In this document: piece after piece, positions 3,027-64,000 of the stretch
Layout: each line of letters opens with the position of its first letter
Position numbering within the stretch: the stretch's first letter is position 1
NCBI GenBank assembly: GCA_024234855.1
Contig: JACKNN010000006.1
Span: 54,708-118,707 of the forward strand
DNA from: Pseudomonadales bacterium
Lineage (GTDB): Bacteria > Pseudomonadota > Gammaproteobacteria > Pseudomonadales > Halieaceae
Direction of reading: 5' to 3'
DNA: 64,000 nucleotides
The notes under the pieces: generated by a model
Databases searched by the model: none
What the model was told of the DNA's origin: nothing
What the model saw: the letters and a program-made list of their open reading frames with translations, nothing else
Program-made: the position numbers and the translations under genes

Positions 3027-3326
3027 ATCGACCTCATCCCTCAAGTGCGGAACGGTGATGCTAAACAAATAGAATTCACGGGCTTGCCAACCTCCGGGGT
3101 CACCAAACCGCCGGGGGATCGGAAGTATGAACCAAGGTCCGGTACCCGGCAACGACATTTTAGGAAAAATTCACACGGTTTGTTACCAAAAGAAGCAGTT
3201 ATTGTGCGGGTGACATAACCAAAAATTATATGTAAGTGCACACTTAAGCTTGTTGGCCATCGTTGCCGCTGCGATTGGAGGGCCGACAGCGCCCCGGATC
3301 AGCATGGAAGCCCAGGCCGGCCCGCC

Positions 3327-4118
3327 TTACCGGTAGGAATGGTCTTCGGTGGGGTAGGTGCCGGCCTTGACGGCGTCGACGAACGCTTTCAGGGCGCCCT
3401 GGATCGTGCTCTGGCCCTCCATGAAATTCTGGACAAAGCGGGCGGTGTGGGCGGTGAGACCCAGCAGGTCGTGCATGACCAGGACCTGGGCGTCGGTGCC
3501 CGGGCCCGCCCCGATACCGATAACGGGAATGTCCAGCTTGCGGCTGATGTCGGCGGCGAGATTGGCCGGAACGCATTCCAGCACCAGCAGGCTGGCGCCC
3601 GCATCCTTGATCTCCACCGCATCGGCGAGGATGGACTTGGCCTCCTTGGGTGTGCGGCCCTGGACCTTGAAGCCGCCAAAGGTATTCACTGACTGGGGGG
3701 TAAGGCCCAGGTGAGCGCAGACCGGGATACCGCGTTCCACCAGTTTGCTGATGGTCCCGCTCAGCCAGGTACCGCCCTCCATTTTCACCATCTGCGCCCC
3801 GGCCTGCATCAACCGGGTGGCGTTCGTCATGGCCTGGTCGGGGGTGGTGTAGGTCATGAACGGCATGTCGGCGATGACCAGTGCCCCGTTCGCCGCCCGG
3901 CACACGCATTCGGTGTGGTAGCTCATGTGGTCCATGGTGACAGGGATGGTGCTGTCGTGGCCCTGCAGCACCATGCCCAGGGAGTCACCTACCAGCATGG
4001 TCTCCGCGCCGGCCTCACTGATGATCCGGGCAAAGGTGGCGTCATAGGCCGTGATGCAGACGAACTTTTCCCCCGCGGCTTTCATTTTGCCCAGGGTGCT
4101 TATGGTTACCTTGGCCAT
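3327..4118 (-). CDS. panB: 3-methyl-2-oxobutanoate hydroxymethyltransferase
   Basis: MAKVTISTLGKMK...ITAYDA...LVGDSLGMV is classic PanB. The start was set at ATG 4118, giving 264 aa. The upstream ORF extension overlaps the preceding gene. Confidence 0.9.
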   Translation of the reverse strand: MAKVTISTLGKMKAAGEKFVCITAYDATFARIISEAGAETMLVGDSLGMVLQGHDSTIPVTMDHMSYHTECVCRAANGALVIADMPFMTYTTPDQAMTNATRLMQAGAQMVKMEGGTWLSGTISKLVERGIPVCAHLGLTPQSVNTFGGFKVQGRTPKEAKSILADAVEIKDAGASLLVLECVPANLAADISRKLDIPVIGIGAGPGTDAQVLVMHDLLGLTAHTARFVQNFMEGQSTIQGALKAFVDAVKAGTYPTEDHSYR

Positions 4119-4122
4119 TGGG

Positions 4123-4803
4123 TTATCCGAAAAAAGTGGGGTTGAAGTAGTGGCGACCGCTGCGAATCTCGAGCAGGTAGTCCACCAGCTGGATATAGTC
4201 GGCTTCGCTGTTCGCCAAATCAAGCTCGCTGGCATTGACGATGAGCAGAGGCGCGTCATCGTAATATAGAAAGAACTCACTGTACACTTCGTTCAGGCGC
4301 TCGAGATAGTCCCGTTCTATGCCCCTCTCGGCGGCAATTCCCCTATTTTCGATTCGCCCCAGCAGCACATCGGGGGCGGCCTGCAGGTAGATCACCAGAT
4401 CGGGCCTGGGTGCATCGATGGTGAGTTGCTGATACACCTTCTGGTAAAGCTGGAACTCATCCCTGTCCAGGTTGACCCGGGCGAACAAGGGGTCTTTTTC
4501 TATCAGGAAATCGGCCACCCGCACGGGCTCGAAGATATCCGCCTGGCGCAGGTCGTGAATTTTCTGGGAGCGTTGGAACAGGAAAAATAACTGGGTGGCC
4601 AGGGCCGCCTGCTTGCGGTTGCGATAAAAGCGCTCCAGGAACGGATTCTCCTCGGCGTTCTCGAGCACAACCTGGTAGTTGAAGCTCGCCGCGAGGCGCT
4701 TGGCCAGCGTGGTTTTGCCCACCCCGATGGGGCCTTCCACGGCGATATAGGCAGGGGGCTTGCGCCCCTTCAGCGCGATCTCGATAGCCGTGGTCTCGGG
4801 CAT
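4123..4803 (-). CDS. Deoxynucleoside kinase family protein
   Basis: P-loop GPIGVGKTTLAK, followed by ENPFLERFY and LFFLFQR motifs typical of dNK/dGK-type kinases. The start is taken at the second ATG (MPETTA), just downstream of the folK stop. Confidence 0.75.
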   Translation of the reverse strand: MPETTAIEIALKGRKPPAYIAVEGPIGVGKTTLAKRLAASFNYQVVLENAEENPFLERFYRNRKQAALATQLFFLFQRSQKIHDLRQADIFEPVRVADFLIEKDPLFARVNLDRDEFQLYQKVYQQLTIDAPRPDLVIYLQAAPDVLLGRIENRGIAAERGIERDYLERLNEVYSEFFLYYDDAPLLIVNASELDLANSEADYIQLVDYLLEIRSGRHYFNPTFFG

Positions 4804-4822
4804 CCGGCGTGTATCCCTCCGT

Positions 4823-5347
4823 TCATTCCACGTCCCCGGGGACGGTGTCATCCTGTATGAGCCTCTGCCCGGTTTTAACCAGGTCGCCGCGCGGGCATCG
4901 GGCGATCAATGTACCAAGATCTGTCCCGTCCGGCAGCACCCAATTTAGCCCGGCCACGTCCGCCAACGGGTATAGCACGAAATTCCGTTGCGCCAGCGCC
5001 GGGTGGGGGATGGTCAGCCGGGGGGTGGCGAGTTGGCGGTCACCGTAGAGCAGGATGTCCAGGTCCAGGCTGCGCGCGCCCCAGTGAACTGTGCGAACCC
5101 GCCCCTGGGCCAGTTCGATACCCTGCAGCGTCCCGAGCAGGTCCACAGGCTCTAGCGAGGTTTCCAGCCTGAGGACGGCATTGAGGTAGTCCGGTTGCAC
5201 ACCGGGACCGACGGCGGCGCTGCGGTAGGCGCTGGAGACCGCTGTTATCGCTGTGCCTGGCAGTTGCGCTATGGCGAGCAGCGCCTTGCGCAGCTGTCGC
5301 AGCGGGTCTTGCAGGTTGCTGCCCAGGCCAATAAAGGCCGTGGTCAT
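4823..5347 (-). CDS. folK: 2-amino-4-hydroxy-6-hydroxymethyldihydropteridine diphosphokinase
   Basis: 174 aa. AFIGLGSNL, WGARSLDLDILLYG and LTIPHP are HPPK signatures. The ATGA overlap with the pcnB stop reproduces the conserved pcnB-folK pair. Confidence 0.9.
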   Translation of the reverse strand: MTTAFIGLGSNLQDPLRQLRKALLAIAQLPGTAITAVSSAYRSAAVGPGVQPDYLNAVLRLETSLEPVDLLGTLQGIELAQGRVRTVHWGARSLDLDILLYGDRQLATPRLTIPHPALAQRNFVLYPLADVAGLNWVLPDGTDLGTLIARCPRGDLVKTGQRLIQDDTVPGDVE

Positions 5348-6639
5348 GCCCTGTTGCTGGAGCGCCGGCGAGATCGGCGCCCGCCACCCCCCGGGCCTTT
5401 TTCCTGCGCGGCCTGCGCCAACCGCTGTTCCATGGGGAGTTGCTGGAATTCAGTCCACCAGCTGCCCAGGTCCCCGGTGTCCTCCCCGGCCTGCTCCCGC
5501 AGCAGCAGGAAGTCATAGGCTGCGCGAAAGCGGCGGTGGTCAACCAGCTCGGCGGCCTTGCGGCCGCGGCGGTTTTCCAGTCGCAGCTGGAATTCCCAGA
5601 TTTCCCGCATGGGCTGGCTGAAGCGCTTGGGAATGGATATGTTGCGGGCCGCCTCTGAGATGGCTTCCTGGGCGGCGCTGTGCATGGCGGCCGGGGGCGG
5701 GTCGCCGCGCTCCTGCAATCGCAGTGCCTCGCGCTGCACCACCGGCCACAGCAGGGCGGCGAGGATGAAGGCCGGCGTGACCGGCTTGTCCTGTGCGATG
5801 CGCTGGTCGGTGCTCGCCATGGCGGCCCTTACCAGGGCATGCGCGACGGTGTGGCGGAGCATTTCCGCATAGCTGTCCGGAAACAGGTACAGCATCAGTT
5901 TGTGCCTGATCAGCATGTCAAACGTGGCGGCCGCATAACCGGACAGAAACAGCTTGAGGAATTCGTCGAACAGGCGGGCGGCGGGAATCTCCGCCAGCAG
6001 GTGTGCGCAGCCGGGAATGGCGCGAGCCGTGTGGGTGTCGATTTTGAATTCCAATTTGGCGGCAAAGCGCAGCACTCGCAGCATGCGCACCGGGTCCTCG
6101 GTGAATCGCACCGCCGGCTCGCCGATAATACAGATGCTGCGGCGTTCGAGGTCCTTGAGCCCGTGCACATGATCGAACACCTCGAAAGTGCCGGAATCGT
6201 AATACAGCGCATTGACCGTCAGGTCGCGCCGCACTGCATCCTCCTCCAGGGTGCCGTAAACATTGTCACGCAAGAGCAGGCCACTGGCTGACTGGCGGGA
6301 GTGGTTGCCACCCGATTCCGAACTGGGTTCAAGGTCGTTGTCGTGATGTCCGCGGAAGGTGGTGACCTCGATGATCTCCCGTCCGAAGCGCACGTGTACG
6401 ATACGAAAGCGCCGGCCGATGATGCGGGAGTTGCGGAACAATGCATGCACGGTTTCCGGTGTTGCATCGGTGGCGATATCAAAGTCTTTCGGGTGCCCGC
6501 CGAGCAGCAGGTCGCGAACGGCGCCGCCCACCAGGTAGGCCTGGTGGCCACTGCCGCGCAGGCGTGCCATGACCTTGAGCGCGCCGTCGCTGATGTTTTT
6601 GCGGGATATATTGTGTTGATCCCTGGGAATGATATTCAA
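5344..6639 (-). CDS. pcnB: Poly(A) polymerase I
   Basis: 431 aa. LVGGAVRDLLLG...KDFDIAT is the nucleotidyltransferase motif, followed by RFRIVHV and a basic Arg-rich C-terminus. It lies upstream of folK, as in E. coli and Pseudomonas. Confidence 0.92.
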   Translation of the reverse strand: MNIIPRDQHNISRKNISDGALKVMARLRGSGHQAYLVGGAVRDLLLGGHPKDFDIATDATPETVHALFRNSRIIGRRFRIVHVRFGREIIEVTTFRGHHDNDLEPSSESGGNHSRQSASGLLLRDNVYGTLEEDAVRRDLTVNALYYDSGTFEVFDHVHGLKDLERRSICIIGEPAVRFTEDPVRMLRVLRFAAKLEFKIDTHTARAIPGCAHLLAEIPAARLFDEFLKLFLSGYAAATFDMLIRHKLMLYLFPDSYAEMLRHTVAHALVRAAMASTDQRIAQDKPVTPAFILAALLWPVVQREALRLQERGDPPPAAMHSAAQEAISEAARNISIPKRFSQPMREIWEFQLRLENRRGRKAAELVDHRRFRAAYDFLLLREQAGEDTGDLGSWWTEFQQLPMEQRLAQAAQEKGPGGGGRRSRRRSSNRA

Positions 6640-53928: not shown

Positions 53929-55446
53929 CTAGTCCTTCTCCCGCCAGAAACCCAGGTACATCAGAAACATCAGCAGCAGTGAGAAGCCACAGCCGGCGAT
54001 CACCGGGGCGACGCCGAAGCTGCCGAAAGGCGTTTTGCCCAGCATGACTTCTGCTTCCCCGGTCAGGGTTGCTTCCACGAACTGATCAGTGCGGGCGACG
54101 ATCCGGCCGCGGTGATCAATGATGGCCGATACGCCGTTGTTGGTGCCGCGAAGCATGTAGCGGCCGTTTTCCAATGCCCGCATCTGGGCCATCTGCAGGT
54201 GCTGCAACGGCCCTATCGACCTGCCGAACCAGCTGTCGTTGCTGATGGTCAGCAGCAGGTCGCTGTGGCGGGCACTGCGTGCCACCAGTTCGGGGTAGAC
54301 CACTTCGTAACAGAGGAAGGGTGCCACCCGGTAGGCACCGGCGCGCAACGGCGCCTGGTCTGCCGGCCCCGAGCTAAAGGCGGACATGGGCAGGTCGAAG
54401 AAGGCGATCAGGCCGCGCAACTGGTCTTCCAGGGGAACGTACTCGCCGAAGGGCACGAGATGCTGCTTGTGGTAGACGCCGTCGCCCTGGCCGAGGGCGA
54501 TCACGCTGTTGAAATAACCCTCGCCCTGGTCCGCCTTGTAGGGCGCGCCGACAAACAGAGTGGTTTCACTGGCGGCGGCGCGCTCGGCTATCGGGTCGAG
54601 AAAGTCCCGGGCGCGTTGGTAGAAATTGGGGATAGCCGCCTCCGGCCAGACCAGGATGTCGGCGCCGTAGTGCGGTTCGCTGGCCTCGCGCAACTGGCGC
54701 AGGATGGGCTGGTACCAGGCCCTGTCCCATTTGTGTTCCTGGGGAACATTGGGTTGGTAGAGAACGACTGACAGCGGTTTTTCGCTGCCCTTGACCACCC
54801 ACTCTATGGGCTTGAGTACCGCGCCGCCGGCCCACAGGGTGATAACGATGACGGCATAAGTGCTGCACGCAACCGCCTGGCGGCTGCGCCAGGCCAGGAA
54901 CAGGCAGATGCCGGTCATGGCGCAGATGAAGGACAGCCCGTACACGCCGACTATCGGGGCCCAGCCTGCAATTGGCGTGTCGAGGTGGGCGTAGCCCAGG
55001 TAAAGCCAGGGGAAACCCGTGAACAGCCAGCTGCGCAGCCATTCCGACAACACCCAGGTTACCGGGAAGCCCATCAACATGCCACCGGGGAGGGCGCGTA
55101 CGAAGCGCACGTAGAACCAGCCGAAGGATGCCTGGAACAGCGCGGCGAGTCCGGCGCAGAAGATGATGATGAGAAAGCCGGCCAGCACCGGGCCGGCACC
55201 GCCGTAATCGTGGATGCTGACGTAAACCCAGGACACCCCGGTGCCGAACATGCCGACGCCGAACAGCCAGCTGCGCCAGACACCTTCGCGCACACTGCAG
55301 GTGCACAACAGGTAGGCGTAGAGCGCACAGCTGATAATGCCGGCCGGCCACAGGTCGAAGGGTGCCAGGGACAGGGTGACCAGCGCCCCCGCGAATGGGG
55401 CGAGAATCAGTACGAGCAGCGGGTGCAGGCCAGGTTCGGTCTTCAT
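53929..55446 (-). CDS. lnt: Apolipoprotein N-acyltransferase
   Basis: 505 aa. N-terminal multi-TM region plus a CN-hydrolase domain (VVWPE, LCYE). Conserved position next to corC. Confidence 0.92.
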   Translation of the reverse strand: MKTEPGLHPLLVLILAPFAGALVTLSLAPFDLWPAGIISCALYAYLLCTCSVREGVWRSWLFGVGMFGTGVSWVYVSIHDYGGAGPVLAGFLIIIFCAGLAALFQASFGWFYVRFVRALPGGMLMGFPVTWVLSEWLRSWLFTGFPWLYLGYAHLDTPIAGWAPIVGVYGLSFICAMTGICLFLAWRSRQAVACSTYAVIVITLWAGGAVLKPIEWVVKGSEKPLSVVLYQPNVPQEHKWDRAWYQPILRQLREASEPHYGADILVWPEAAIPNFYQRARDFLDPIAERAAASETTLFVGAPYKADQGEGYFNSVIALGQGDGVYHKQHLVPFGEYVPLEDQLRGLIAFFDLPMSAFSSGPADQAPLRAGAYRVAPFLCYEVVYPELVARSARHSDLLLTISNDSWFGRSIGPLQHLQMAQMRALENGRYMLRGTNNGVSAIIDHRGRIVARTDQFVEATLTGEAEVMLGKTPFGSFGVAPVIAGCGFSLLLMFLMYLGFWREKD

Positions 55447-55460
55447 GGGCTGACGCCGGC

Positions 55461-56306
55461 TCAGTTTTGCAGCGGCCGCATGCGCAGGCTGTGAATTTTG
55501 CGCTGGTCGGCGTTGATCACCTGGAACTCGAATTTATCAATGGTGGCGGTTTCGTTGCGGGTGGGCATATGGCCCAGGGCCTGGATGACCAGGCCGCCTA
55601 TGGTATCGAAATCGTCATCGCTGAAGCTGGTACCGAAATACTCATTGAAATCCTCGATCGGTGTCAACGCCTTGATGAAGTAGTCATCTTCGGTGATTTT
55701 GCGGATGAAATGATCGGTCTCCGCATCGGTCTCATCCTCGATATCGCCGACGATTTCTTCCAGCACATCCTCGATGGTTACCAGACCGGCGACGCCGCCG
55801 TATTCATCGATGACAATCGCCATGTGGTTGCGGTTCTCGCGAAACTCCCGCAGCAGTACGTTGAGGCGCTTGCTCTCGGGGACTACCACCGAGGGCCGCA
55901 ACAGTTCGCGAATATTGAACTCGCTCTGGTCCTTGTTGAGGATCTGGGGCAGCAGGTCCTTGGCCAGCAGGATGCCGTAGATATCGTCCAGGCTGTCGCC
56001 GACCACCGGGTAGCGGGAGTGGGCCGTGCGCACGATATGCGGCAGGATCTCCTCCAGCGAGGAGTCGGCCTTGATCACCACCATCTGGGTGCGCGGGATC
56101 ATAATGTCCCGGGCCTGCATGTCGATGACTTCCATCGCGCCCTCCATGATGCTGCGGGCGTCTCTGTCGATGATTTCCTTGTCGACAGCCAGGGCCAGCA
56201 CATCCTGCAGATCCTGGCGATTGCGCGGCTCCGAGGAAAACAGGACGGCAAAACGGTTGATCCAGGATTTCTCGCCCGAATCGTTGCCTGATCGGTCGTC
56301 GCTCAT
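55461..56306 (-). CDS. corC: CorC/YbeX family CBS-domain magnesium/cobalt efflux-associated protein
   Basis: 281 aa. A CBS pair plus the CorC_HlyC C-terminal domain, within the ybeZYX-lnt operon context. Confidence 0.9.
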   Translation of the reverse strand: MSDDRSGNDSGEKSWINRFAVLFSSEPRNRQDLQDVLALAVDKEIIDRDARSIMEGAMEVIDMQARDIMIPRTQMVVIKADSSLEEILPHIVRTAHSRYPVVGDSLDDIYGILLAKDLLPQILNKDQSEFNIRELLRPSVVVPESKRLNVLLREFRENRNHMAIVIDEYGGVAGLVTIEDVLEEIVGDIEDETDAETDHFIRKITEDDYFIKALTPIEDFNEYFGTSFSDDDFDTIGGLVIQALGHMPTRNETATIDKFEFQVINADQRKIHSLRMRPLQN

Positions 56307-56785
56307 GCCAGCGAATTCTCCTGAGGTGGGTTGGCCTGGTAGGGGCAGGGGTAGTCCAGGGCGGCCAGGATGCCGCTTTCAAGGGTTTCCATCGCCATAG
56401 CTTCATTTTCTTCGATATGGTCGTAACCCAGCAGGTGCAGGGTGCCGTGTACGGCCATGTGCGCCCAGTGGGCGGCCAGGGACTTGTGCTGCGCCAACGC
56501 CTCTGCGCGCACCACGGGAACGCAGATCACAATATCGCCGAGCAGGGGCAAATCGAGTTCCGGCGGCAGGTCGGCGGGAAAGGAGAGGACGTTGGTAGGG
56601 CCGTTTTTGCCGCGATACGCCTGGTTCAGGTCGGCCATCTCCCGGGTATCGACCAGGCGCACACTGATCTCGGTATCTGCTCTGGTATGCCGACTGGCCA
56701 GGGCGGCCGCTATCCAGCGCCGTAAGTCATCCTCGTCAGGCACCGGCTCAGCACTGGCGCACTGGATGTCGACGGTCAGGTTCAT
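56303..56785 (-). CDS. ybeY: rRNA maturation endoribonuclease YbeY
   Basis: The HGTLHLLGYDH zinc-binding motif is diagnostic. 160 aa. Confidence 0.95.
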   Translation of the reverse strand: MNLTVDIQCASAEPVPDEDDLRRWIAAALASRHTRADTEISVRLVDTREMADLNQAYRGKNGPTNVLSFPADLPPELDLPLLGDIVICVPVVRAEALAQHKSLAAHWAHMAVHGTLHLLGYDHIEENEAMAMETLESGILAALDYPCPYQANPPQENSLA

Positions 56786-57843
56786 CGCCGGGTCCGGTCC
56801 AGTGGAGTGGCCCTGTCTTCATGGCTGTCGTAGGCCTCGACAATGCGCTGTACCAGCGGGTGGCGCACGACGTCCTTGCTGCCGAAATAGGTGAAGCCGA
56901 TCCCCTCGACGCCGGCCAGCACATTGCTCGCGTGGGTGAGCCCCGAGGGCGAGCCCTTGGGCAGGTCGATCTGGGTGGCATCCCCGGTAATCACCGCGGT
57001 GGACCCGAAGCCGATCCGGGTGAGGAACATTTTCATCTGTTCCCGGGTGGTGTTCTGCGCCTCATCCAGGATGATAAAGGAATTGTTGAGGGTGCGGCCG
57101 CGCATGAAGGCCAGCGGCGCGACCTCGATGATGTGGCGCTCGATGTATTTGTTGACCGTCTCAAAGCCCAGCATCTCGTACAGGGCGTCGTACAGCGGTC
57201 GCAGGTAGGGGTCAATCTTCTGGCTCAGGTCACCCGGGAGGAAGCCCAGCTTTTCCCCGGCCTCCACTGCCGGTCGCACCAGCAGGATGCGGCGCACCCG
57301 GTCCTCGAGCAGGGCCTCCACTGCGCAGGCCACCGCGAGGTAGGTTTTACCCGTACCCGCGGGCCCTATGCCGAAGTTGATGTCACACTGCCCTATGGTG
57401 CGCACGTAACCCTGCTGGTTGCCGCCGCGGGGCTTGATGGGCGCGCGCCGGGTCCGGATCACCCGGATGGCCTGCACCGACGGGTCGGTGTCAGCATCCG
57501 GTTCCACCAGTTGCTCCAGTTCGGAGTGCTGCAACTGCAGGTGCAGGGATTCCTGCGTCAGTTCGACGCCCCGGCAGATATCTGCATACAAATGGGTGAT
57601 CAGGCGCGCCGCCGCCGCCACGTCGTCGGCCTCGCCTGCCAGCAGGAACTGGTTGCCGCGGGCGCTGATGGCGAGGCCGAAACGACGCTCCATCTGGCGC
57701 AGGTGGCTGTCGAACTGGCCGCACAGCGCGGCCAGGTGGCGAGCGTCATCGGGTTCCAGGGTGAGGCTTTGCTGTGTCGAGGGCACCGGGGGTGCCGACG
57801 GTATCTGGGGGGAGTCGCTAGTCAAAATAATGGCTGGCCACAA
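56782..57843 (-). CDS. ybeZ: PhoH-like ATPase YbeZ
   Basis: Walker A GPAGTGKTYLA and FIILDEAQN. The TTG start is uncertain. Confidence 0.9.
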   Translation of the reverse strand: MWPAIILTSDSPQIPSAPPVPSTQQSLTLEPDDARHLAALCGQFDSHLRQMERRFGLAISARGNQFLLAGEADDVAAAARLITHLYADICRGVELTQESLHLQLQHSELEQLVEPDADTDPSVQAIRVIRTRRAPIKPRGGNQQGYVRTIGQCDINFGIGPAGTGKTYLAVACAVEALLEDRVRRILLVRPAVEAGEKLGFLPGDLSQKIDPYLRPLYDALYEMLGFETVNKYIERHIIEVAPLAFMRGRTLNNSFIILDEAQNTTREQMKMFLTRIGFGSTAVITGDATQIDLPKGSPSGLTHASNVLAGVEGIGFTYFGSKDVVRHPLVQRIVEAYDSHEDRATPLDRTRR

Positions 57844-57888
57844 AGGGCAGTAGTAAAGAACCTAAGGATATATGGGAAATCATCCGCG

Positions 57889-59220
57889 TCAACCGGCGCT
57901 TGGCACGCCGCGCAGGGAGTTGGGCAGGGCCTCCAGGATATCGACATGGACAAACTGGCCCACCAGGGCCGCATCCGTCGCGGAAAAATTCACCACCCGG
58001 TTGTTTTCGGTGCGGCCCTGTAACTGCCCCGGATCCTTTTTTGATACGCCTGTCACGAGAATTCTCTCCCGTTTTCCCACCATGCGCCGGCTGATCAGCT
58101 GGGCCTGCTGGATGAGGCGGTTTTGCAGGATTTGCAGGCGCTGCTTCTTGGTCTGCTCATCGGTAGCGTCGGGCAGTTCCGCCGCGGGTGTGCCCGGACG
58201 GGCGCTGTAGACAAAGCTGAAGGAACTGTCGAAGCCGATTTCCTCGACCAGTTTCATGGTGGCGGCAAAGTCCGCCTCGGTCTCACCCGGGAAGCCGATG
58301 ATGAAATCCGAGGAGATGCTGATATCGGGGCGCAATTTGCGCAGGCGGCGGATCTTCGACTTGTATTCGAGAACCGTATGACCTCGCTTCATCGCCATCA
58401 GGATGCGGTCTGAGCCACTCTGGACCGGCAGGTGCAGGTGGTCCACCAGTTGCGGGATGTCCGCGTAGGCCGCTATCAGGGCATCGGAGAATTCCACCGG
58501 GTGCGATGTGGTATAGCGAATACGCTCGATCCCGGGGATGCGGGCGACGACGTGCAGCAATTCGGCAAAGTCGACGGTTTCGCCCAGGTGATTGTCACCC
58601 CGGTAGGCGTTCACATTCTGGCCCAGCAGGTTGACTTCCCGGACGCCGCCGGCGGCCAGGTGGGCGATTTCCGCGATCACGTCGTCCAGTGGCCTGGAGA
58701 CTTCCTCGCCCCGGGTATAGGGCACCACGCAGAAGGTGCAGTACTTGCTGCAGCCCTCCATTACCGAGACGAAGGCGCTGGGGCCCTCCACTTTTGGCTC
58801 TGGCAGGCGGTCAAACTTTTCGATCTCGGGGAAGCTGACATCCACCACGATGGTGCCGCCGGGGCCGCGCTGCTCCATCATGTCCGGCAGGCGATGCAGG
58901 GTCTGGGGGCCAAATACCAGGTCTACGTAGGGTGCCCGACGGCCTATCTCGGCGCCTTCCTGGCTGGCCACGCAGCCGCCGACGCCGATCACGAGGTTGG
59001 GGTTTTTCTTCTTCAGTCGCTTCCAGCGCCCCAGCTGGTGGAACACCTTCTCCTGGGCTTTTTCCCTTATGGAACAGGTATTTAGCAGAAGTACGTCCGC
59101 CTCTTCCGGGTTGTCGGTGGGGACCAGGTCGTGGCTTTCGCGCAGCAGGTCGCGGATGCGCGAGGAGTCGTACTCGTTCATCTGGCAGCCGTGGGTCTTG
59201 ATGTAAAGTTTCTTGCTCAC
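57889..59220 (-). CDS. miaB: tRNA-i6A37 methylthiotransferase
   Basis: 443 aa. [12 protein letters not shown] (UPF0004 domain), radical-SAM CSKYCTFC, and a C-terminal TRAM domain. Confidence 0.95.
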
Positions 59221-59431
59221 CGGGCCTCTGCGGCGAACTGGCCGCCGGTTGTCGATCCATACTCGAAGGGGTGCGAATTATACAGACGAACATCGTCGAA
59301 ACCCACCCCGGCTGGTATTCTCCGTGGAGGGTGGTAATATTGCCGCCCCCAGAAAACAGGTGGTTGCTGCGAGACCGCCGAGCCGGTGGCCAGCACAGTA
59401 TCCCGGGGTCAAGCCGCCGAATGAGGAAAGC

Positions 59432-59776
59432 ATGGCAAGCCAGCCCGTCTACAAGGTGATTTTCCAGAACGGCAGCCAGGTGTTCGAGGTGTTCGCCCGG
59501 CAAATCTACCAGAGTGATATGTGGGGCTTTATCGAGGTCGAGGAGTTTGTCTTCGGCGAGCGCTCCAGGATCGTGGTCGATCCCGGCGAGGAAAAGCTCA
59601 AGAACGAGTTCAGCGGCGTCAAGCGCAGCTATATCCCGCTGCAGGCCATCATCCGCATCGACGAGGTCGACAAGGAGGGCAGTGGCAAGGTGTCTGATAC
59701 GCCGCCGGTCAGTGGCAATGTCGCCAGTTTCCCCTTTGCCGGTGTTACCCCCGGGCAGCGCGGTAGCGAGGAGTAG
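59432..59776 (+). CDS. DUF1820-family protein
   Basis: YKVIFQNGSQVFEVFARQIYQSDMWGFIEVEEFVFGERS...SYIPLQAIIRIDEV is the conserved pattern found divergent from miaB in many gammaproteobacteria. The start is ATG 59432. Confidence 0.7.
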   Translation: MASQPVYKVIFQNGSQVFEVFARQIYQSDMWGFIEVEEFVFGERSRIVVDPGEEKLKNEFSGVKRSYIPLQAIIRIDEVDKEGSGKVSDTPPVSGNVASFPFAGVTPGQRGSEE

Positions 59777-59915
59777 TCGCTCCACCCGCGATCGCGATCA
59801 CCCTCTCCCCGTCCCGGGGCTGGCCGTGTCCCGCCCCTATTTCCAACCCCCTGTTTGCAGGGCCAACCCAAGCGGCTATGCTGGTAGCTTCACTACAGGG
59901 AGTCGGGAGCCGGGC

Positions 59916-60299
59916 ATGACAATCAACTGGTCAAATTGTACGCAATTGCTGCGGATATCACTGTCCATACTGTGCTGTTGTGCGTCGGCTATACCGGCCG
60001 CCATGGCCCAGCCGCCCGCCGACGCGGCCGCCGTCGAGCGCGGCGCCCGGTTGTTCCAGCAGCATTGCACCCAGTGCCACGGCGCAGACGGCCGCGCCGA
60101 GCTCGATGTCATCGCCGACGCCACCAACCTGACCCTGCCTGCGGATTACTACAGCGGCAGTACCGACCAGGATATCTACAACAGTATTGCCAACGGCGCG
60201 GGTGTGGCGATGCCGGCCTGGCGCCCGGTGGTCGGCAGCGATGAGGCGGTGTGGGACCTGGTCTATTACGTCAAGAGCCTGTGGGCCGAGCAACCCTGA
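59916..60299 (+). CDS. Monohaem c-type cytochrome (class I), secreted
   Basis: Signal peptide ending AMA-QPP, haem motif CTQCH, and a distal Met context GVAMPAW. 127 aa from ATG 59916. Confidence 0.8.
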   Translation: MTINWSNCTQLLRISLSILCCCASAIPAAMAQPPADAAAVERGARLFQQHCTQCHGADGRAELDVIADATNLTLPADYYSGSTDQDIYNSIANGAGVAMPAWRPVVGSDEAVWDLVYYVKSLWAEQP

Positions 60300-60334
60300 A
60301 CAAGGTTTGAATTTCCGAAGACAAGGAGAACACC

Positions 60335-62332
60335 ATGGACAAGCAGGACACCCGGCCCGATCAGGAGCAGGCTGAAACAGCAGGCGCCGCCAGCAACTCG
60401 CGCCGCGACTTTTTGCGCAAGTCGGCAGTGGGCGTGGGCGCGGCGGTAGCCGCCGGTGCCAGTACCAGCGCCTTCACCGCGGACCAGGTCAATATTGCCA
60501 ACGTGACCATCCCGTCGATACGGATACCCGCCGACTTCATGGCCTCGCTGGAGGAAGCGCCGGACCCCGGCAAATTCGAAGGCAGGGGCATGAGCGGGGC
60601 GGAGGTGTTCGCCCAGGTTTGCGTAAAGGAGGAACTGGCCGCCCTGTTTTGCTGCCCCGGCAATTACACCGTGATCAACGCCCTGGCGGCGGCGGGTATC
60701 CCCGCCTACGGCGGCCGCATGGAGGGCTCCATGTGCGCCATGGCGGATGGCTTTTCCCGCGCCACCGGCGAGGTGGTGGCCACCTCCGGCACCGAGGGCC
60801 CGGGTTTCACCAATATGATTATGAATATCGCCGCGGCCAGCGCCGCGCGCACCCCGCTGCTGGTACTGGCCAGCAATATGATGATCGCCGGTGATGACCG
60901 CGAGGCCTTTATCCAGACGGGTTACCAGCAGCCCCTCACCACAGGCATCAAGAAGTACGGCAAGCGGCTTATCGACCCCGCCCGGGTGCACGAGTACGGC
61001 GGCTACGCCTTCCGCGAGTTGAAGTCGGGCATCCCCGGCCCCGTGCACCTGGATTTTCCCGCCGAGGTGACACGGGCCCGCTTCAAGAGCCCCGAGGAGC
61101 TGAAGGATTACTACGACAAGAGCAAGTACCGCAGTACCTCCAGGCCCTACCCTGGCGCCGGCGAAATGGCCCAGGTGGTCAGGATGATCGACAAGGCCCA
61201 GCGGCCGCTCATCGTGGCGGGGCAGGGCGTGTTCCAGCGCAAGGGTTGGGATGCCCTGATGAAGGTCGCCGAGAAGGGCGATATAGCGGTTGCCACCTCC
61301 GGCCCCACCCGGGGCGCCTTTCCGGATGATCACCGCCTGTGCGTCATGGCGGCGCCGGACGCCCTGCTCAGCGCCGACCTGGTGATATTTATCGGCCAGT
61401 ACTGCATGCCCAGCCCCGGCGAGTACCGCCTGAGTCCGGGCATCACGACCATCCGGGTACACCCCGACCAGACTGACCTGGGTCGCAACTGGCCTCTGGA
61501 CCTGGGTGTGGTCAGTGACGAGGCACTGTTCCTGGAGGCCCTGCAGGATGTGGTCAGGGGTAAGAAGCGCGGCGCCTGGGTGGACGAGATCGCCAGGGCG
61601 AAGAAAGCCTACCAGCAGCATATCGACGAGACCTACCAACTGGGCCTTGAGTACAGCAAGAAAACCAACCACCTGCACCCGGCGGTGATCGGCCATGAAA
61701 CCCAGCACTTTATCGATAACGGCACCGACGACCGGCTGGCGGTGGTGACCGGCGGCGGCGGCTGGACTATCGGCCTGTTTACCGGTCGCTACCTGCGTGC
61801 CCGGCGCCCGGGCCAGGTGATCGTGCCTGCCTACCAGTACGGCGCCATCGGCCCGGATATGTCGATGATGATGGGCGCCTGCACCGCGGTGCAGCGCGGC
61901 GTTGGCCCGCAAAAAGGCTATGAGGGCGCGCCCACGATCTGCGTGACCAGTGACGCCGGAGTCGCCTATAGCATGTTCGAACTGGATACCGCGGCGAAGT
62001 ACGGACTGCCGACCATCACCATTGTCTACAACAACAACGCCTGGGGGGTGTGGACCAATGCGGCCCGCTCCGCCCGCTCCCTGCAGATGTACCTGTTCCA
62101 GGAAAACCTGCGCTACGACCAGATGGCCCAGGGCCTCGGCGCGAACGGGGAGTACGTGCGCACGGTGGAGGAATTCCGGGCGGCGCTCGCGCGGGCCTGG
62201 AAGCTGGCCCGCGACCAGAAAGTCTCCAGCCTGATCAATTGCCAGGCCCTGAAGGAATTCACCTCGCCGCGGGATTACCCGCCGGGTGTCTCCCTCAATG
62301 CCGAGCCCGGCGTGGGCGCCGTAGCCCACTGA
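60335..62332 (+). CDS. Thiamine-diphosphate-dependent enzyme (acetolactate-synthase/POX superfamily) with twin-arginine signal peptide
   Basis: N-terminus SRRDFLRKSAVGVGAAVAAGASTSAFTA is a textbook Tat motif (S-R-R-x-F-L-K plus h-region plus AxA-like site). PYR domain (EGSMCAMADGFSRATGEVVATSGTEGPGFTN). PP domain with the ThDP motif SDAG...(N24)...NNNAWG. Confidence 0.8.
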   Translation: MDKQDTRPDQEQAETAGAASNSRRDFLRKSAVGVGAAVAAGASTSAFTADQVNIANVTIPSIRIPADFMASLEEAPDPGKFEGRGMSGAEVFAQVCVKEELAALFCCPGNYTVINALAAAGIPAYGGRMEGSMCAMADGFSRATGEVVATSGTEGPGFTNMIMNIAAASAARTPLLVLASNMMIAGDDREAFIQTGYQQPLTTGIKKYGKRLIDPARVHEYGGYAFRELKSGIPGPVHLDFPAEVTRARFKSPEELKDYYDKSKYRSTSRPYPGAGEMAQVVRMIDKAQRPLIVAGQGVFQRKGWDALMKVAEKGDIAVATSGPTRGAFPDDHRLCVMAAPDALLSADLVIFIGQYCMPSPGEYRLSPGITTIRVHPDQTDLGRNWPLDLGVVSDEALFLEALQDVVRGKKRGAWVDEIARAKKAYQQHIDETYQLGLEYSKKTNHLHPAVIGHETQHFIDNGTDDRLAVVTGGGGWTIGLFTGRYLRARRPGQVIVPAYQYGAIGPDMSMMMGACTAVQRGVGPQKGYEGAPTICVTSDAGVAYSMFELDTAAKYGLPTITIVYNNNAWGVWTNAARSARSLQMYLFQENLRYDQMAQGLGANGEYVRTVEEFRAALARAWKLARDQKVSSLINCQALKEFTSPRDYPPGVSLNAEPGVGAVAH

Positions 62333-62814
62333 TGGAGGCTGCGGGCCGGATCGGTGATGTGCTGGAATACTATGCCGGTCGAGGGGTGTTCAGCGGTTTC
62401 AGCCGGCGGGCGCAGCGTGCTTCAGGCGCCGAATTCCGGCTGCGCTGGCACCGCGAGCAGGTGTTCCGGTGGGTGTGGAACGAGGCGAAGCAGACCCTGC
62501 GCATCAGCTGCGTACTGCCGGCGGTACCGGCGCGTTCAGCCATGTACCGGGACTTCAGGGCCTGGCTGGTGGCGCGGCAGGACGATGCGCTGCCGCCGCA
62601 CCGGCGCTGCGACCGCGCCAAGGTCGCCCTGAAGACCCACAACCGCGGCGGCGATGTCGCGCTCACCCTGCAGGTGCTGGACGGGGACGTGGATTACGCG
62701 GCGAACAAGCTGGTGAGCCTGGTCAATGAAATTTACCTGGACTTCCTCTCCAGCGGCCTCTACTTCGAGTGGCTGATAGAAACGTTCGATCTGGACCCGG
62801 ACAACCCCTACTGA
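62332..62814 (+). CDS. Hypothetical cytoplasmic protein, translationally coupled to the Tat-ThDP enzyme gene
   Basis: 160 aa from ATG 62332, overlapping the upstream TGA (ATGA). No signal peptide and no recognisable motif. Confidence 0.55.
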   Translation: MEAAGRIGDVLEYYAGRGVFSGFSRRAQRASGAEFRLRWHREQVFRWVWNEAKQTLRISCVLPAVPARSAMYRDFRAWLVARQDDALPPHRRCDRAKVALKTHNRGGDVALTLQVLDGDVDYAANKLVSLVNEIYLDFLSSGLYFEWLIETFDLDPDNPY

Positions 62815-62832
62815 GTGAGCTGGCCCGCCCGT

Positions 62833-63990
62833 TCAGCCCGATTGTTGCTGCAGTTTCTGTCGTACCGTCGCCAGCCGCACACACACCACGAAAGCCGCCA
62901 CGGTGTCCTTGACCGCCTGCTCGGTGGCGAAGGTGGGTGACAGGCGGATATTGCTGTCCAGGGGATCCAGGCCATAGGGGAAGGTCGCGCCCGCCGGGGT
63001 CAGCTTGACGCCGATGGCCCCCGCCAGTCGCACCACCTCGCGGCCCAGTCCGGGCAGGGTGTCGAACGAGATAAAATACCCGCCGCGGGGCCTGGTCCAG
63101 CTGCCCATGCCGGTGCCGGCCAGTTCGCTCTCCAGGGTATCCAGCACGCTCTCGAAACGGGGACGTATCAGGGCCGCGTGCTTCGCCATATGTGCGGACA
63201 GCTTGTCCATATCCCGCAGGAAGCGCACGTGGCGCAGCTGGTTTACCTTGTCCGGGCCTATGGTCTGGTAACTCAGGTGTTTGCTCAGCGCCGCCAGGTT
63301 GCCGGGGCTGCTGGCCAGGAATGCCACCCCCGCGCTGGCAAACGTAATTTTCGAGGTGGAGCCGAACTGGAACACCTGGTCCAGGGTGCCCCTGGCCCGA
63401 CAGTGGTCGGCGATGGAGGCCAGCGCCGGTGCGTCGTCGTAGAGTGTGTGCACGGCGTAGGCGTTGTCCCACATCACCAGGAAGTTCGCGCCGGCGAGCC
63501 CCGGCAGCGCTGCGATGCGCGCCACGGTGTCGTCGCTGTAGACACAGCCGGTGGGGTTGGAAAAGCGCGGCACGCACCACATACCCTTGATCGACTCGTC
63601 CCGCTTCACCAGCGCTTCCACCGCGTCCATGTCGGGTCCGGTGTCGAGCATGGGCACCGTGACCATCTCGATACCCAGGTGCTCGCACACGGAAAAATGC
63701 CGGTCGTAGCCCGGTACCGGGCAAATGAATTTGACGGTATCGTTGTTGCCCCAGGCCGATTCGGGCCCCTGCAGGCCCTCGCTCAGGGCAAACTCCACCA
63801 CCTGGTACATCAGGGTCAGGCTGGAATTGCCGCCCACCATGATTTCCCCGGCGGGCAGGCCCAGCAGCTCCCCGAACAGTGCCCTGGCTTCCGGCAGGCC
63901 GTCCAGGCCGCCGTAATTGCGGGTGTCGGTGCCGTCCTGGGCGCGGTAATTACCCTGCAGGATACCGTCGAGGCCATCGGCCAGCGCCAC
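62833..63990 (-). CDS. PLP-dependent aminotransferase (class I/II fold), 5' end probably outside the window
   Basis: GGNSSLTLMY, YDRHF, WDNAYAVH and STSKITFASAGVAF (Lys in SxSK) fit an aspartate-aminotransferase-fold enzyme. The reading frame stays open to the window edge. Confidence 0.75.
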   Translation of the reverse strand: MALADGLDGILQGNYRAQDGTDTRNYGGLDGLPEARALFGELLGLPAGEIMVGGNSSLTLMYQVVEFALSEGLQGPESAWGNNDTVKFICPVPGYDRHFSVCEHLGIEMVTVPMLDTGPDMDAVEALVKRDESIKGMWCVPRFSNPTGCVYSDDTVARIAALPGLAGANFLVMWDNAYAVHTLYDDAPALASIADHCRARGTLDQVFQFGSTSKITFASAGVAFLASSPGNLAALSKHLSYQTIGPDKVNQLRHVRFLRDMDKLSAHMAKHAALIRPRFESVLDTLESELAGTGMGSWTRPRGGYFISFDTLPGLGREVVRLAGAIGVKLTPAGATFPYGLDPLDSNIRLSPTFATEQAVKDTVAAFVVCVRLATVRQKLQQQSG

Positions 63991-64000
63991 CTGCTCGGTG

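Follow-up and report, generated by a model that had tools for sequence, protein, structure and literature searches.

A thiamine-diphosphate enzyme with a predicted twin-arginine signal, encoded with a cytochrome c and a chaperone-like protein in a Halieaceae genome and in distant phyla

To our knowledge, thiamine diphosphate (ThDP) enzymes of the decarboxylase-type superfamily are otherwise known solely inside the cell, where they are textbook cytoplasmic catalysts. The cofactor chemistries of periplasmic respiratory dehydrogenases are pyrroloquinoline quinone (PQQ), molybdopterin, flavin, haem and copper. Here we analyse a three-gene unit whose sequence points to an oxidising enzyme system, so far undescribed, that would work outside the cytoplasm. 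It lies in a stretch of 64,000 nucleotides (the window) from a Pseudomonadales bacterium of the Halieaceae (GenBank assembly GCA_024234855.1, contig JACKNN010000006.1, positions 54,708 to 118,707 of the forward strand). The three genes are tightly packed on the plus strand: a cytochrome c gene, the gene of a ThDP enzyme with a predicted twin-arginine translocation (Tat) signal, and an open reading frame termed ORF160 (Table 1). Full-text literature searches for Tat-exported or periplasmic ThDP (thiamine pyrophosphate, TPP) enzymes found no paper describing one. New in this work are the codon test of the signal, the score boundary of the clade, the gene order of a second subfamily (B), the insertion or deletion in Halieaceae, and the nested signal-less lineage in Rhizobium.

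The closest described enzymes are oxalyl-coenzyme A (CoA) decarboxylase (OXC), 2-hydroxyacyl-CoA lyase (HACL) and its synthase counterpart (HACS), benzaldehyde lyase (BAL)/formolase and BbmA (8VZJ, 8VZA, 6XN8, 7PT1, 2AG0, 4QQ8, 8X3X). They have the same three-domain ThDP fold, they are the best solved sequence matches (E 2e-46 to 1e-37), and the cofactor Glu and the Mg-binding Asp and Asn-Asn are common to both sides. Identity is about 25-31% and none of their NCBIfam models is reached. All of them catalyse non-oxidative reactions in the cytoplasm or in peroxisomes, and several depend on CoA thioesters, whereas the clade studied here has a cytochrome partner and, in the protein itself, a Tat signal, extensions at both termini, an SDAG motif and an eight-residue insert as additional features. 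Pyruvate oxidase (PoxB) offers an analogy for the proposed chemistry, since there a ThDP enamine is oxidised and the electrons pass to the respiratory chain. However, PoxB is cytoplasmic or peripheral, flavin-dependent and quinone-reducing, while the acceptor proposed here is a periplasmic cytochrome c.

For the gene layout, the nearest analogy is torCAD, in which a cytochrome c (TorC), a Tat-exported cofactor enzyme (TorA) and a signal-less helper (TorD) follow the same order and logic as the trio in the window. SorAB, a periplasmic dehydrogenase-cytochrome c pair, appears as an analogous arrangement. In torCAD the cofactor is molybdopterin whereas the trio would use ThDP, and in the trio the electrons presumably flow towards the cytochrome. 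Furthermore, TorD/DmsD and NapD are unrelated to ORF160, whose modelled fold resembles that of type III secretion chaperones.

The case for export begins with the N-terminus of the ThDP enzyme. The precursor scores 26.7 bits against the NCBI TAT_signal_seq model TIGR01409 (cut-off 16.7). A variable n-region (residues 1-20) is followed by N21-S-R-R-D-F-L-R-K-S30, an Ala/Gly h-region and the predicted cleavage site A-F-T-A49 before D50. The twin-arginine pair (RR) motif stands at the same position, after the variable n-region, in all 120 closest homologues (67-98% identity), and R23, R24 and F26 are invariant in an alignment of 19 of these. For a codon test, the window was compared with six close relatives and each differing codon was scored as synonymous or not. 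The synonymous share amounts to 76% in residues 21-49 and 78-88% in the mature enzyme, as against 12% in residues 2-20. Because the differing codons of residues 21-49 are mostly synonymous, this part of the signal is translated and constrained by purifying selection. The same genome carries tatC (TatC, PF00902, 244 bits). The textbook Tat signal that the earlier note had read from the letters is borne out by these results. That note had also considered a better downstream start that removes the RR motif, but there is none; the next Met is M69, and a start there would remove sequence conserved across phyla. In frame upstream of the ATG there are just eight sense codons. Taken together, the signal suggests that the Tat system exports the ThDP enzyme to the periplasm.

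If the Tat peptide were left uncleaved, as in Rieske proteins, the enzyme would stay anchored at the periplasmic face of the membrane and act as a membrane-bound dehydrogenase beside the respiratory chain. A sub-threshold match to the Rieske TAT-signal family (PF10399, 20.6 bits against 24) and the annotation of one homologue (P0062) with this model point in that direction. However, close homologues conserve a small-residue site after the h-region, A-F-T/A-A followed by D/E, and the h-region itself is Ala/Gly-rich and weakly hydrophobic, as is usual for cleaved Tat signals. We regard permanent anchoring as very improbable.

The signal coincides with a sharp boundary in sequence space. In a search of 1.84 billion representative proteins, with full-length matches ranked by bits, the enzyme finds matches at 806, 616 and 392 bits, and the next one falls to 188 bits (29-31% identity). 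The RR pair is present in the 806- and 616-bit representatives and in a partial match of 511 residues (P0126); the 392-bit representative has a hydrophobic N-terminus, but without RR in its called start. All 66 full-length proteins under the score drop begin directly at the PYR domain and are signal-free. The nearest enzymes outside the clade thus all lack a signal, in agreement with the earlier expectation that superfamily relatives are not exported. On these scores the ThDP enzyme sits in a sharply bounded, Tat-bearing clade.

Several features beyond the signal mark this clade. The extension of the mature N-terminus (residues 50-85) is conserved in the family and missing from all 65 aligned outgroup enzymes and from a Rhizobium copy described below. 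At the other end, H665 is invariant in the 19 aligned members, and a terminal His is also found in P0124, P0125, P0126 and the Rhizobium copy. Further marks are SDAG in place of GDG (S539 and A541 being clade-specific), the insert at residues 518-525, and the motifs TEGPG and GQYCMPSPGEY. The predicted periplasmic enzyme also has six conserved cysteines (C96, C106, C107, C134, C357 and C536), four of them invariant and two nearly so; C96, C106, C107 and C357 are clade-specific. These residues may form disulfides, bind a metal or just be buried. An iron-sulfur (Fe-S) site built from the invariant cysteines was considered and rejected, as they align with buried Gly, Leu or Val of the outgroup and a cluster motif is absent.

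The three domain families of the ThDP enzyme all score above cut-off and stand in canonical order, and by this PYR-TH3-PP architecture the protein is assigned to the decarboxylase-type superfamily. The cofactor-activating glutamate is conserved at 90% or more in a 96-sequence alignment that includes distant ThDP enzymes, and it is invariant in 19 aligned clade members. The Mg-diphosphate motif reads S539-D540-A541-G and N566-N567 with 24 residues between, which fits the known pattern GDG-X(24-27)-NN; D540 is invariant in all 96 aligned sequences, and the flanking glycines have changed to Ser and Ala in this clade. Because E130, D540 and N566-N567 are kept, the enzyme looks catalytically competent. 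No NCBIfam model reaches its cut-off, the best scoring 177 bits against 539. The candidate memberships that we rejected comprise OXC/HACL (PRK09259, 104.5 bits against 557; HdaclCoAlyACT, 122.8 against 600), pyruvate oxidase/PoxB (PRK08611, 105 against 742), the acetohydroxyacid synthase (AHAS) large subunit (TIGR00118, 154.7 against 538), and glyoxylate carboligase and Xsc, whose NCBIfam scores also stay far under the cut-offs.

The solved structures that come closest are those of BbmA, OXC/HACL/HACS, BAL/formolase and glyoxylate carboligase, with pyruvate oxidases and AHAS ranking lower. With the central domain as sole query, two FAD-containing enzymes, glyoxylate carboligase and cyclohexane-1,2-dione hydrolase, score about level with BbmA, HACL and OXC, such that FAD- and ADP-binding relatives are not separated. 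This comparison leaves room for a variant of the oxidative reading in which the enzyme resembles pyruvate oxidase and is a flavoenzyme: FAD in the central domain would take up two electrons and pass them singly to the cytochrome c. The intact central domain with its GxG loop (RPLIVAGQGV) is compatible with such a role, and the Tat route is typical for proteins that take up redox cofactors in the cytoplasm. In contrast, the whole-protein scores of pyruvate oxidases and of AHAS lie well under those of BbmA, OXC, HACL and BAL, the pyruvate oxidase model PRK08611 stays far under its cut-off, and the clade has GQYCMPSPGEY where the outgroup has a G-x-R-F-D block. A flavin-bearing enzyme is decidedly unlikely in our estimate. 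The AlphaFold model of the ThDP enzyme, computed from a 19-row alignment of low diversity, has a mean pLDDT (predicted local distance difference test) of 60 and leaves the PYR domain unresolved; it is used for no structural claim.

The proposed redox partner is a small protein with hits to PF13442 (55.5 bits, cut-off 27) and PF00034 (38.5 bits, cut-off 21.3). Its haem motif is C51-T-Q-C-H55 and its axial ligand M99. C51, C54, H55, M99 and P100 show no variation in 37 orthologues, and the block downstream of the haem site, DGKAQVDVIADATDLT, is unusually strongly conserved across phyla. A hydrophobic N-terminus precedes the haem domain in all 72 orthologues that were taken as adjacent open reading frames. 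The nearest solved chains are the CcoP haem domains of cbb3 oxidase (E 2e-24). Judged by the CxxCH motif, the distal Met and the export signal, which are all present, the protein is a class I monohaem c-type cytochrome. The reading of a Sec-type monohaem cytochrome c (CTQCH) upstream of the ThDP gene on the same strand therefore stands, with Pfam matches above cut-off.

Conserved gene linkage is what joins the cytochrome to the enzyme. A pattern scan with one genome per species retrieved 338 genomes with a relative, and the 80 best loci (subfamily A) were examined. They come from Halieaceae, other Gammaproteobacteria, Burkholderiaceae, Paracoccus, Acidobacteriota, Planctomycetota, Hydrogenedentota and Nitrospirales. 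The cytochrome c gene lies directly upstream of the ThDP gene in 73 of these 80 loci; in four of the seven exceptions the ThDP gene lies within 600 nt of a contig end. ORF160 is likewise adjacent in 73 of the 80, following the enzyme gene or preceding that of the cytochrome. This linkage spans at least five phyla (Pseudomonadota, Acidobacteriota, Planctomycetota, Hydrogenedentota and Nitrospirota), and the pairing of cytochrome and ThDP enzyme is far beyond chance. Subfamily B, at about 50% identity and RR-bearing, is found in Vicinamibacterales, Blastocatellia and some Planctomycetia. Its gene order is ThDP enzyme, ORF160 and a small cytochrome c, with ORF160 in 55 of 59 loci and a CxxCH reading frame in 46 of 59. 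With two gene orders in subfamily A and a third in subfamily B, the linkage therefore survives rearrangement. A distant representative (P0124, 56% identity) has the same trio. The neighbourhood check that had been suggested for these three genes thus reveals a conserved unit across phyla, and nothing beyond the trio is conserved in the comparison across lineages. Carriers with records that are not labelled as metagenome-assembled genomes number at least three: Pseudohalioglobus lutimaris HF004, Bryobacterales bacterium F-183 and Cellvibrionaceae bacterium WSDTSA12. The distribution is sparse: of 200 further genomes from this order 5 have the trio, and of 399 sampled across the class none does.

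Periplasmic redox proteins of three kinds are added next to the trio in a minority of the loci of both subfamilies. The added genes lie downstream of it in many Blastocatellia and Acidobacteriota loci (L132 8794-13731, L134 8848-13580, L050 10101-11993, L084 4946-6424). The first kind is a PQQ quinohaemoprotein dehydrogenase with its own cytochrome domain. The second is a protein of 440-465 residues whose sole recognised domain is an N-terminal cytochrome c. The third, of 480-500 residues, combines a CxxCH haem site with a Cu2_monoox_C-like (copper-monooxygenase-like) domain. These additions hint at a multi-step periplasmic oxidation pathway or a larger redox cluster. Other neighbours are more local. 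In L050, a 770-residue tannase-like DUF6351 protein (3567-5891) is encoded directly upstream of ORF160, cytochrome and ThDP enzyme, preceded by an OmpR-type regulator with TPR repeats, and L035 has a 769-residue reading frame in the same position (3065-5374). On the contig of P0124 (L102 1270-8659) the trio has ubiE-ubiB-type genes on one side and, on the other, a hisE-like gene and then tatA; this position beside Tat machinery genes may be a coincidence. An oxalate pathway, suggested by CoA-transferase III genes in four Blastocatellia loci, was rejected; these genes stand beside an enoyl-CoA hydratase gene and look like a separate operon.

A single lineage lacks the signal. On the conjugative plasmid p3 of Rhizobium leguminosarum GLR17 (NZ_CP071629.1 254621-256462; L101 6980-8821), a homologue of 613 residues with 53.5% identity has neither a signal nor the IPSIRIP block, and it retains the core signatures of the clade and the terminal His. 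Its neighbours encode a nonribosomal peptide synthetase, a large AMP-binding protein, two short-chain dehydrogenases/reductases, a TauD dioxygenase, a major facilitator superfamily transporter and a glycosyltransferase; neither the cytochrome c nor ORF160 is present at this locus. In a tree rooted on signal-less outgroups, the copy falls within subfamily A, where two Tat-bearing members form its sister group, on a long branch (0.65 against about 0.2). The earlier note had named homologues that lack the signal and are never linked to cytochrome c as a refutation; the sole signal-less homologue found is derived and nested in the Tat clade, and so leaves the proposal intact. Read from the tree and the gene content, this is a lineage in which signal, cytochrome and ORF160 were lost jointly on recruitment to a cytoplasmic biosynthetic cluster. 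This one joint loss ties cytochrome and ORF160 to the exported state and not to the catalytic core. The Rhizobium cluster itself may represent an undescribed natural-product pathway which uses the ThDP enzyme of this clade.

ORF160 belongs to no Pfam or NCBIfam family and has no signal peptide. A profile search gave 266 matches in which the orthologues are named hypothetical and none of those listed has a name or a Pfam family. A known family of redox enzyme maturation proteins (TorD/DmsD, NapD) was rejected for lack of a Pfam or NCBIfam match. The structural model is of high quality (pLDDT 91) and runs helix, four strands, helix, two strands, helix. VIA-align places 1xkp_C first (Z 8.3 over 106 residues, root-mean-square deviation 3.2), followed by 2plg_B (Z 8.2), and Foldseek reports 3kxy_B and 2plg_A with a probability of 0.99-1.0 and E of about 0.01. 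The lists of structure matches comprise SycN-YscB, Spa15, SigE, ExsC, SycT, SicP, InvB and YbjN-like proteins. In a language-model search, the atlas neighbour clusters of ORF160 carry DUF2299, CesT, YbjN and TY-Chap1. The scores are borderline, but two methods agree in suggesting a type III secretion chaperone-like fold. Class I chaperones of type III secretion (SycN-YscB, Spa15, SigE, ExsC, CesT) and YbjN/DUF2299-like proteins have their order of secondary structures in common with the ORF160 model; unlike them, ORF160 belongs to no sequence family and is presumed to serve a Tat substrate. The genes identified around the trio include none for type III secretion.

The most economical reading is that ORF160 acts as a cytoplasmic escort of the ThDP precursor. 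Alternatively, it could stay with the enzyme as a lasting small subunit and be carried out by the Tat signal of the large one, in the manner of the small subunits of some Tat-exported enzymes. ORF160 lacks a signal, its gene is translationally coupled to that of the ThDP enzyme through the TGATG overlap and nearly always adjacent to it, and the small subunits of the related AHAS are about 160 residues long. However, its modelled fold resembles secretion chaperones and not ACT-domain regulatory subunits, and the cytoplasmic Rhizobium homologue does without ORF160, so that it is not required for the catalytic core. A co-exported subunit therefore seems unlikely to us.

The escort role of ORF160 enters a wider proposal, in which the ThDP enzyme oxidises a small carbonyl compound in the periplasm and this oxidation is coupled to cytochrome c. 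We hold this to be slightly likelier right than wrong. The ThDP enzyme would fold, dimerise and take up ThDP-Mg inside the cytoplasm, where ORF160, a cytoplasmic protein with a secretion-chaperone-like fold, would escort or proofread the precursor. The Tat system would then move the folded holoenzyme to the periplasm. There, the enzyme may convert a small 2-oxo acid or aldehyde to a carbanion/enamine bound to ThDP; the substrate could be glyoxylate, pyruvate, oxalate, formaldehyde or a different short aldehyde. This substrate class is favoured because acyl-anion equivalents of C1 or C2 size are what the nearest homologues stabilise on ThDP. The intermediate would be oxidised in two one-electron steps, with the electrons passing to the dedicated Sec-exported monohaem cytochrome c, directly or via a mediator, and from there to a terminal oxidase. 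The analysis itself shows how the genes are built and arranged, that the Tat signal and the linkage of the three genes are conserved, that the ThDP motifs are intact, and which fold is modelled for ORF160. That the enzyme is exported and oxidises its substrate, that ORF160 is a chaperone, that the cytochrome accepts the electrons and that the substrate is of the class named are inferred, and oxidation with electron transfer to the cytochrome draws on the gene linkage and on the analogy with other periplasmic dehydrogenase-cytochrome c pairs.

Several findings weigh against this proposal. The nearest solved relatives (BbmA, OXC/HACL and BAL/formolase) catalyse non-oxidative reactions. Neither the central-domain search nor the model with pLDDT 60 identified a flavin or Fe-S site that could bridge a two-electron donor and a one-electron haem. 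RR-bearing members without a nearby cytochrome exist (L026, L032, L082, L095 and a set of Vicinamibacterales loci), and the pattern of joint loss in Rhizobium is one lineage and one event. On the side of the escort, the VIA Z scores of 8.0-8.3 for SycN-YscB, Spa15 and SigE are to be set against a value of about 8 that is near the background of the tool for models without a clear match. Among the sequencing runs listed for the stretch there is no RNA run. A predicted complex of the mature ThDP enzyme (residues 50-665, 96-row alignment) with haem and mature cytochrome c (residues 36-127) gave ipSAE values of 0.02 and 0.00 against a mark of 0.32, which speaks neither for nor against binding.

Some of these points would suit a non-oxidative lyase, decarboxylase or carboligase in the periplasm, whose neighbouring cytochrome serves another enzyme or has a regulatory or redox-activating role. 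Such an enzyme could, for example, cleave 2-hydroxy-ketones or decarboxylate 2-oxo acids delivered by neighbouring periplasmic dehydrogenases. None of the nearest solved relatives is oxidative, and they are flavin-independent or bind ADP only; the PQQ dehydrogenases and cytochrome-fused copper-monooxygenase-like proteins beside the trio in a minority of loci fit a scheme of oxidation followed by cleavage; and several RR-bearing members stand without an adjacent cytochrome. On the other hand, the cytochrome is kept in most loci that have no other redox enzyme, the window included, and it was lost along with the Tat signal in the Rhizobium lineage. In addition, the PQQ enzymes have a cytochrome domain of their own and so have no need of the trio cytochrome. 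We judge a non-oxidative enzyme improbable.

If the oxidative, cytochrome-coupled reading is true, ThDP joins the cofactor set of periplasmic respiratory dehydrogenases. It would then have to be asked how, with neither flavin nor Fe-S clusters, a ThDP intermediate that gives up two electrons can reduce a haem that takes one. The trio could represent a new class of Tat-exported respiratory dehydrogenases free of both, acting on a small 2-oxo acid or aldehyde in the periplasm, in which a ThDP radical or enamine directly reduces cytochrome c and a protein with a type III secretion chaperone fold serves as Tat escort; for this more specific version our expectation is tentative and on the doubtful side. 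If the escort role is true, ORF160 and its orthologues would form an export escort family that is new. Hundreds of species among Acidobacteriota, Planctomycetota and marine or wastewater Gammaproteobacteria carry the module, and if active it would provide a widespread, unaccounted route by which small organic acids or aldehydes are oxidised in soil, sludge and sediment.

Table 1. Features of the trio and of its immediate upstream neighbour (positions in the window).
Feature	Position	Strand	Details
DUF1820 gene	59432-59776	+	PF08850, 139.7 bits; between miaB and the cytochrome c gene (apparent 700-nt gap)
Cytochrome c gene	59916-60299	+	127 aa
Sec-type signal of cytochrome c (predicted)	59916-60008	+	about 31 residues; hydrophobic N-terminus ending AMA, before QPP
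Shine-Dalgarno AAGGAG	60323-60328	+	6 nt upstream of the ThDP ATG; read from sequence
ThDP enzyme gene	60335-62332	+	665 aa precursor
Twin-arginine signal peptide (predicted)	60335-60481	+	residues 1-49; TIGR01409
RR motif S22-R-R-D-F-L-R28	60398-60418	+	within the signal
Mature N-terminal extension	60482-60589	+	residues 50-85; conserved block IPSIRIPxDFxxSLxE
PYR domain	60590-60907	+	PF02776, 73.4 bits; N-terminal ThDP-binding; cofactor-activating E130
Central TH3/M domain	61169-61543	+	PF00205, 72 bits; may hold FAD, ADP or no nucleotide
PP domain	61778-62239	+	PF02775, 65 bits; C-terminal ThDP-binding; clade-specific insert 518-525
C-terminal extension	62252-62329	+	residues 640-665; clade-specific; terminal His H665
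ORF160 gene	62332-62814	+	160 aa

All three reading frames lie where they had first been placed, and the ThDP start does follow the cytochrome stop at a distance of 35 nt. The ThDP stop and the ORF160 start overlap by one base. An Rfam scan of 59100-63000 found no RNA family, TPP riboswitch included, and a promoter and terminator scan of the locus stayed at background level. The upstream flank is a minus-strand housekeeping block of lnt, corC, ybeY, phoH and miaB (53929-59220), and the downstream flank, beginning at 62833, is a convergent minus-strand aminotransferase gene (PF12897). What looks like a gap before the cytochrome gene in fact holds the DUF1820 gene. This gene is 79-89% identical in DNA among Halieaceae loci and is part of the housekeeping synteny, not of the trio. 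In a related, trio-free genome of the same family (G577; L098, G577:C25:28911-32237), miaB, DUF1820 and the aminotransferase gene follow one another directly, at distances of about 100 nt. Because these flanks are contiguous without the trio, the trio in the window (57889-63999 compared) is a clean, discrete insertion or deletion of 3 kb.

Near-identical DNA of 59800-62900 occurs in DNA runs of 11 studies, from activated sludge, wastewater, sludge and soil metagenomes. The host organism, which the records of its closest relatives place in Halieaceae, seems to be a regular member of wastewater communities.

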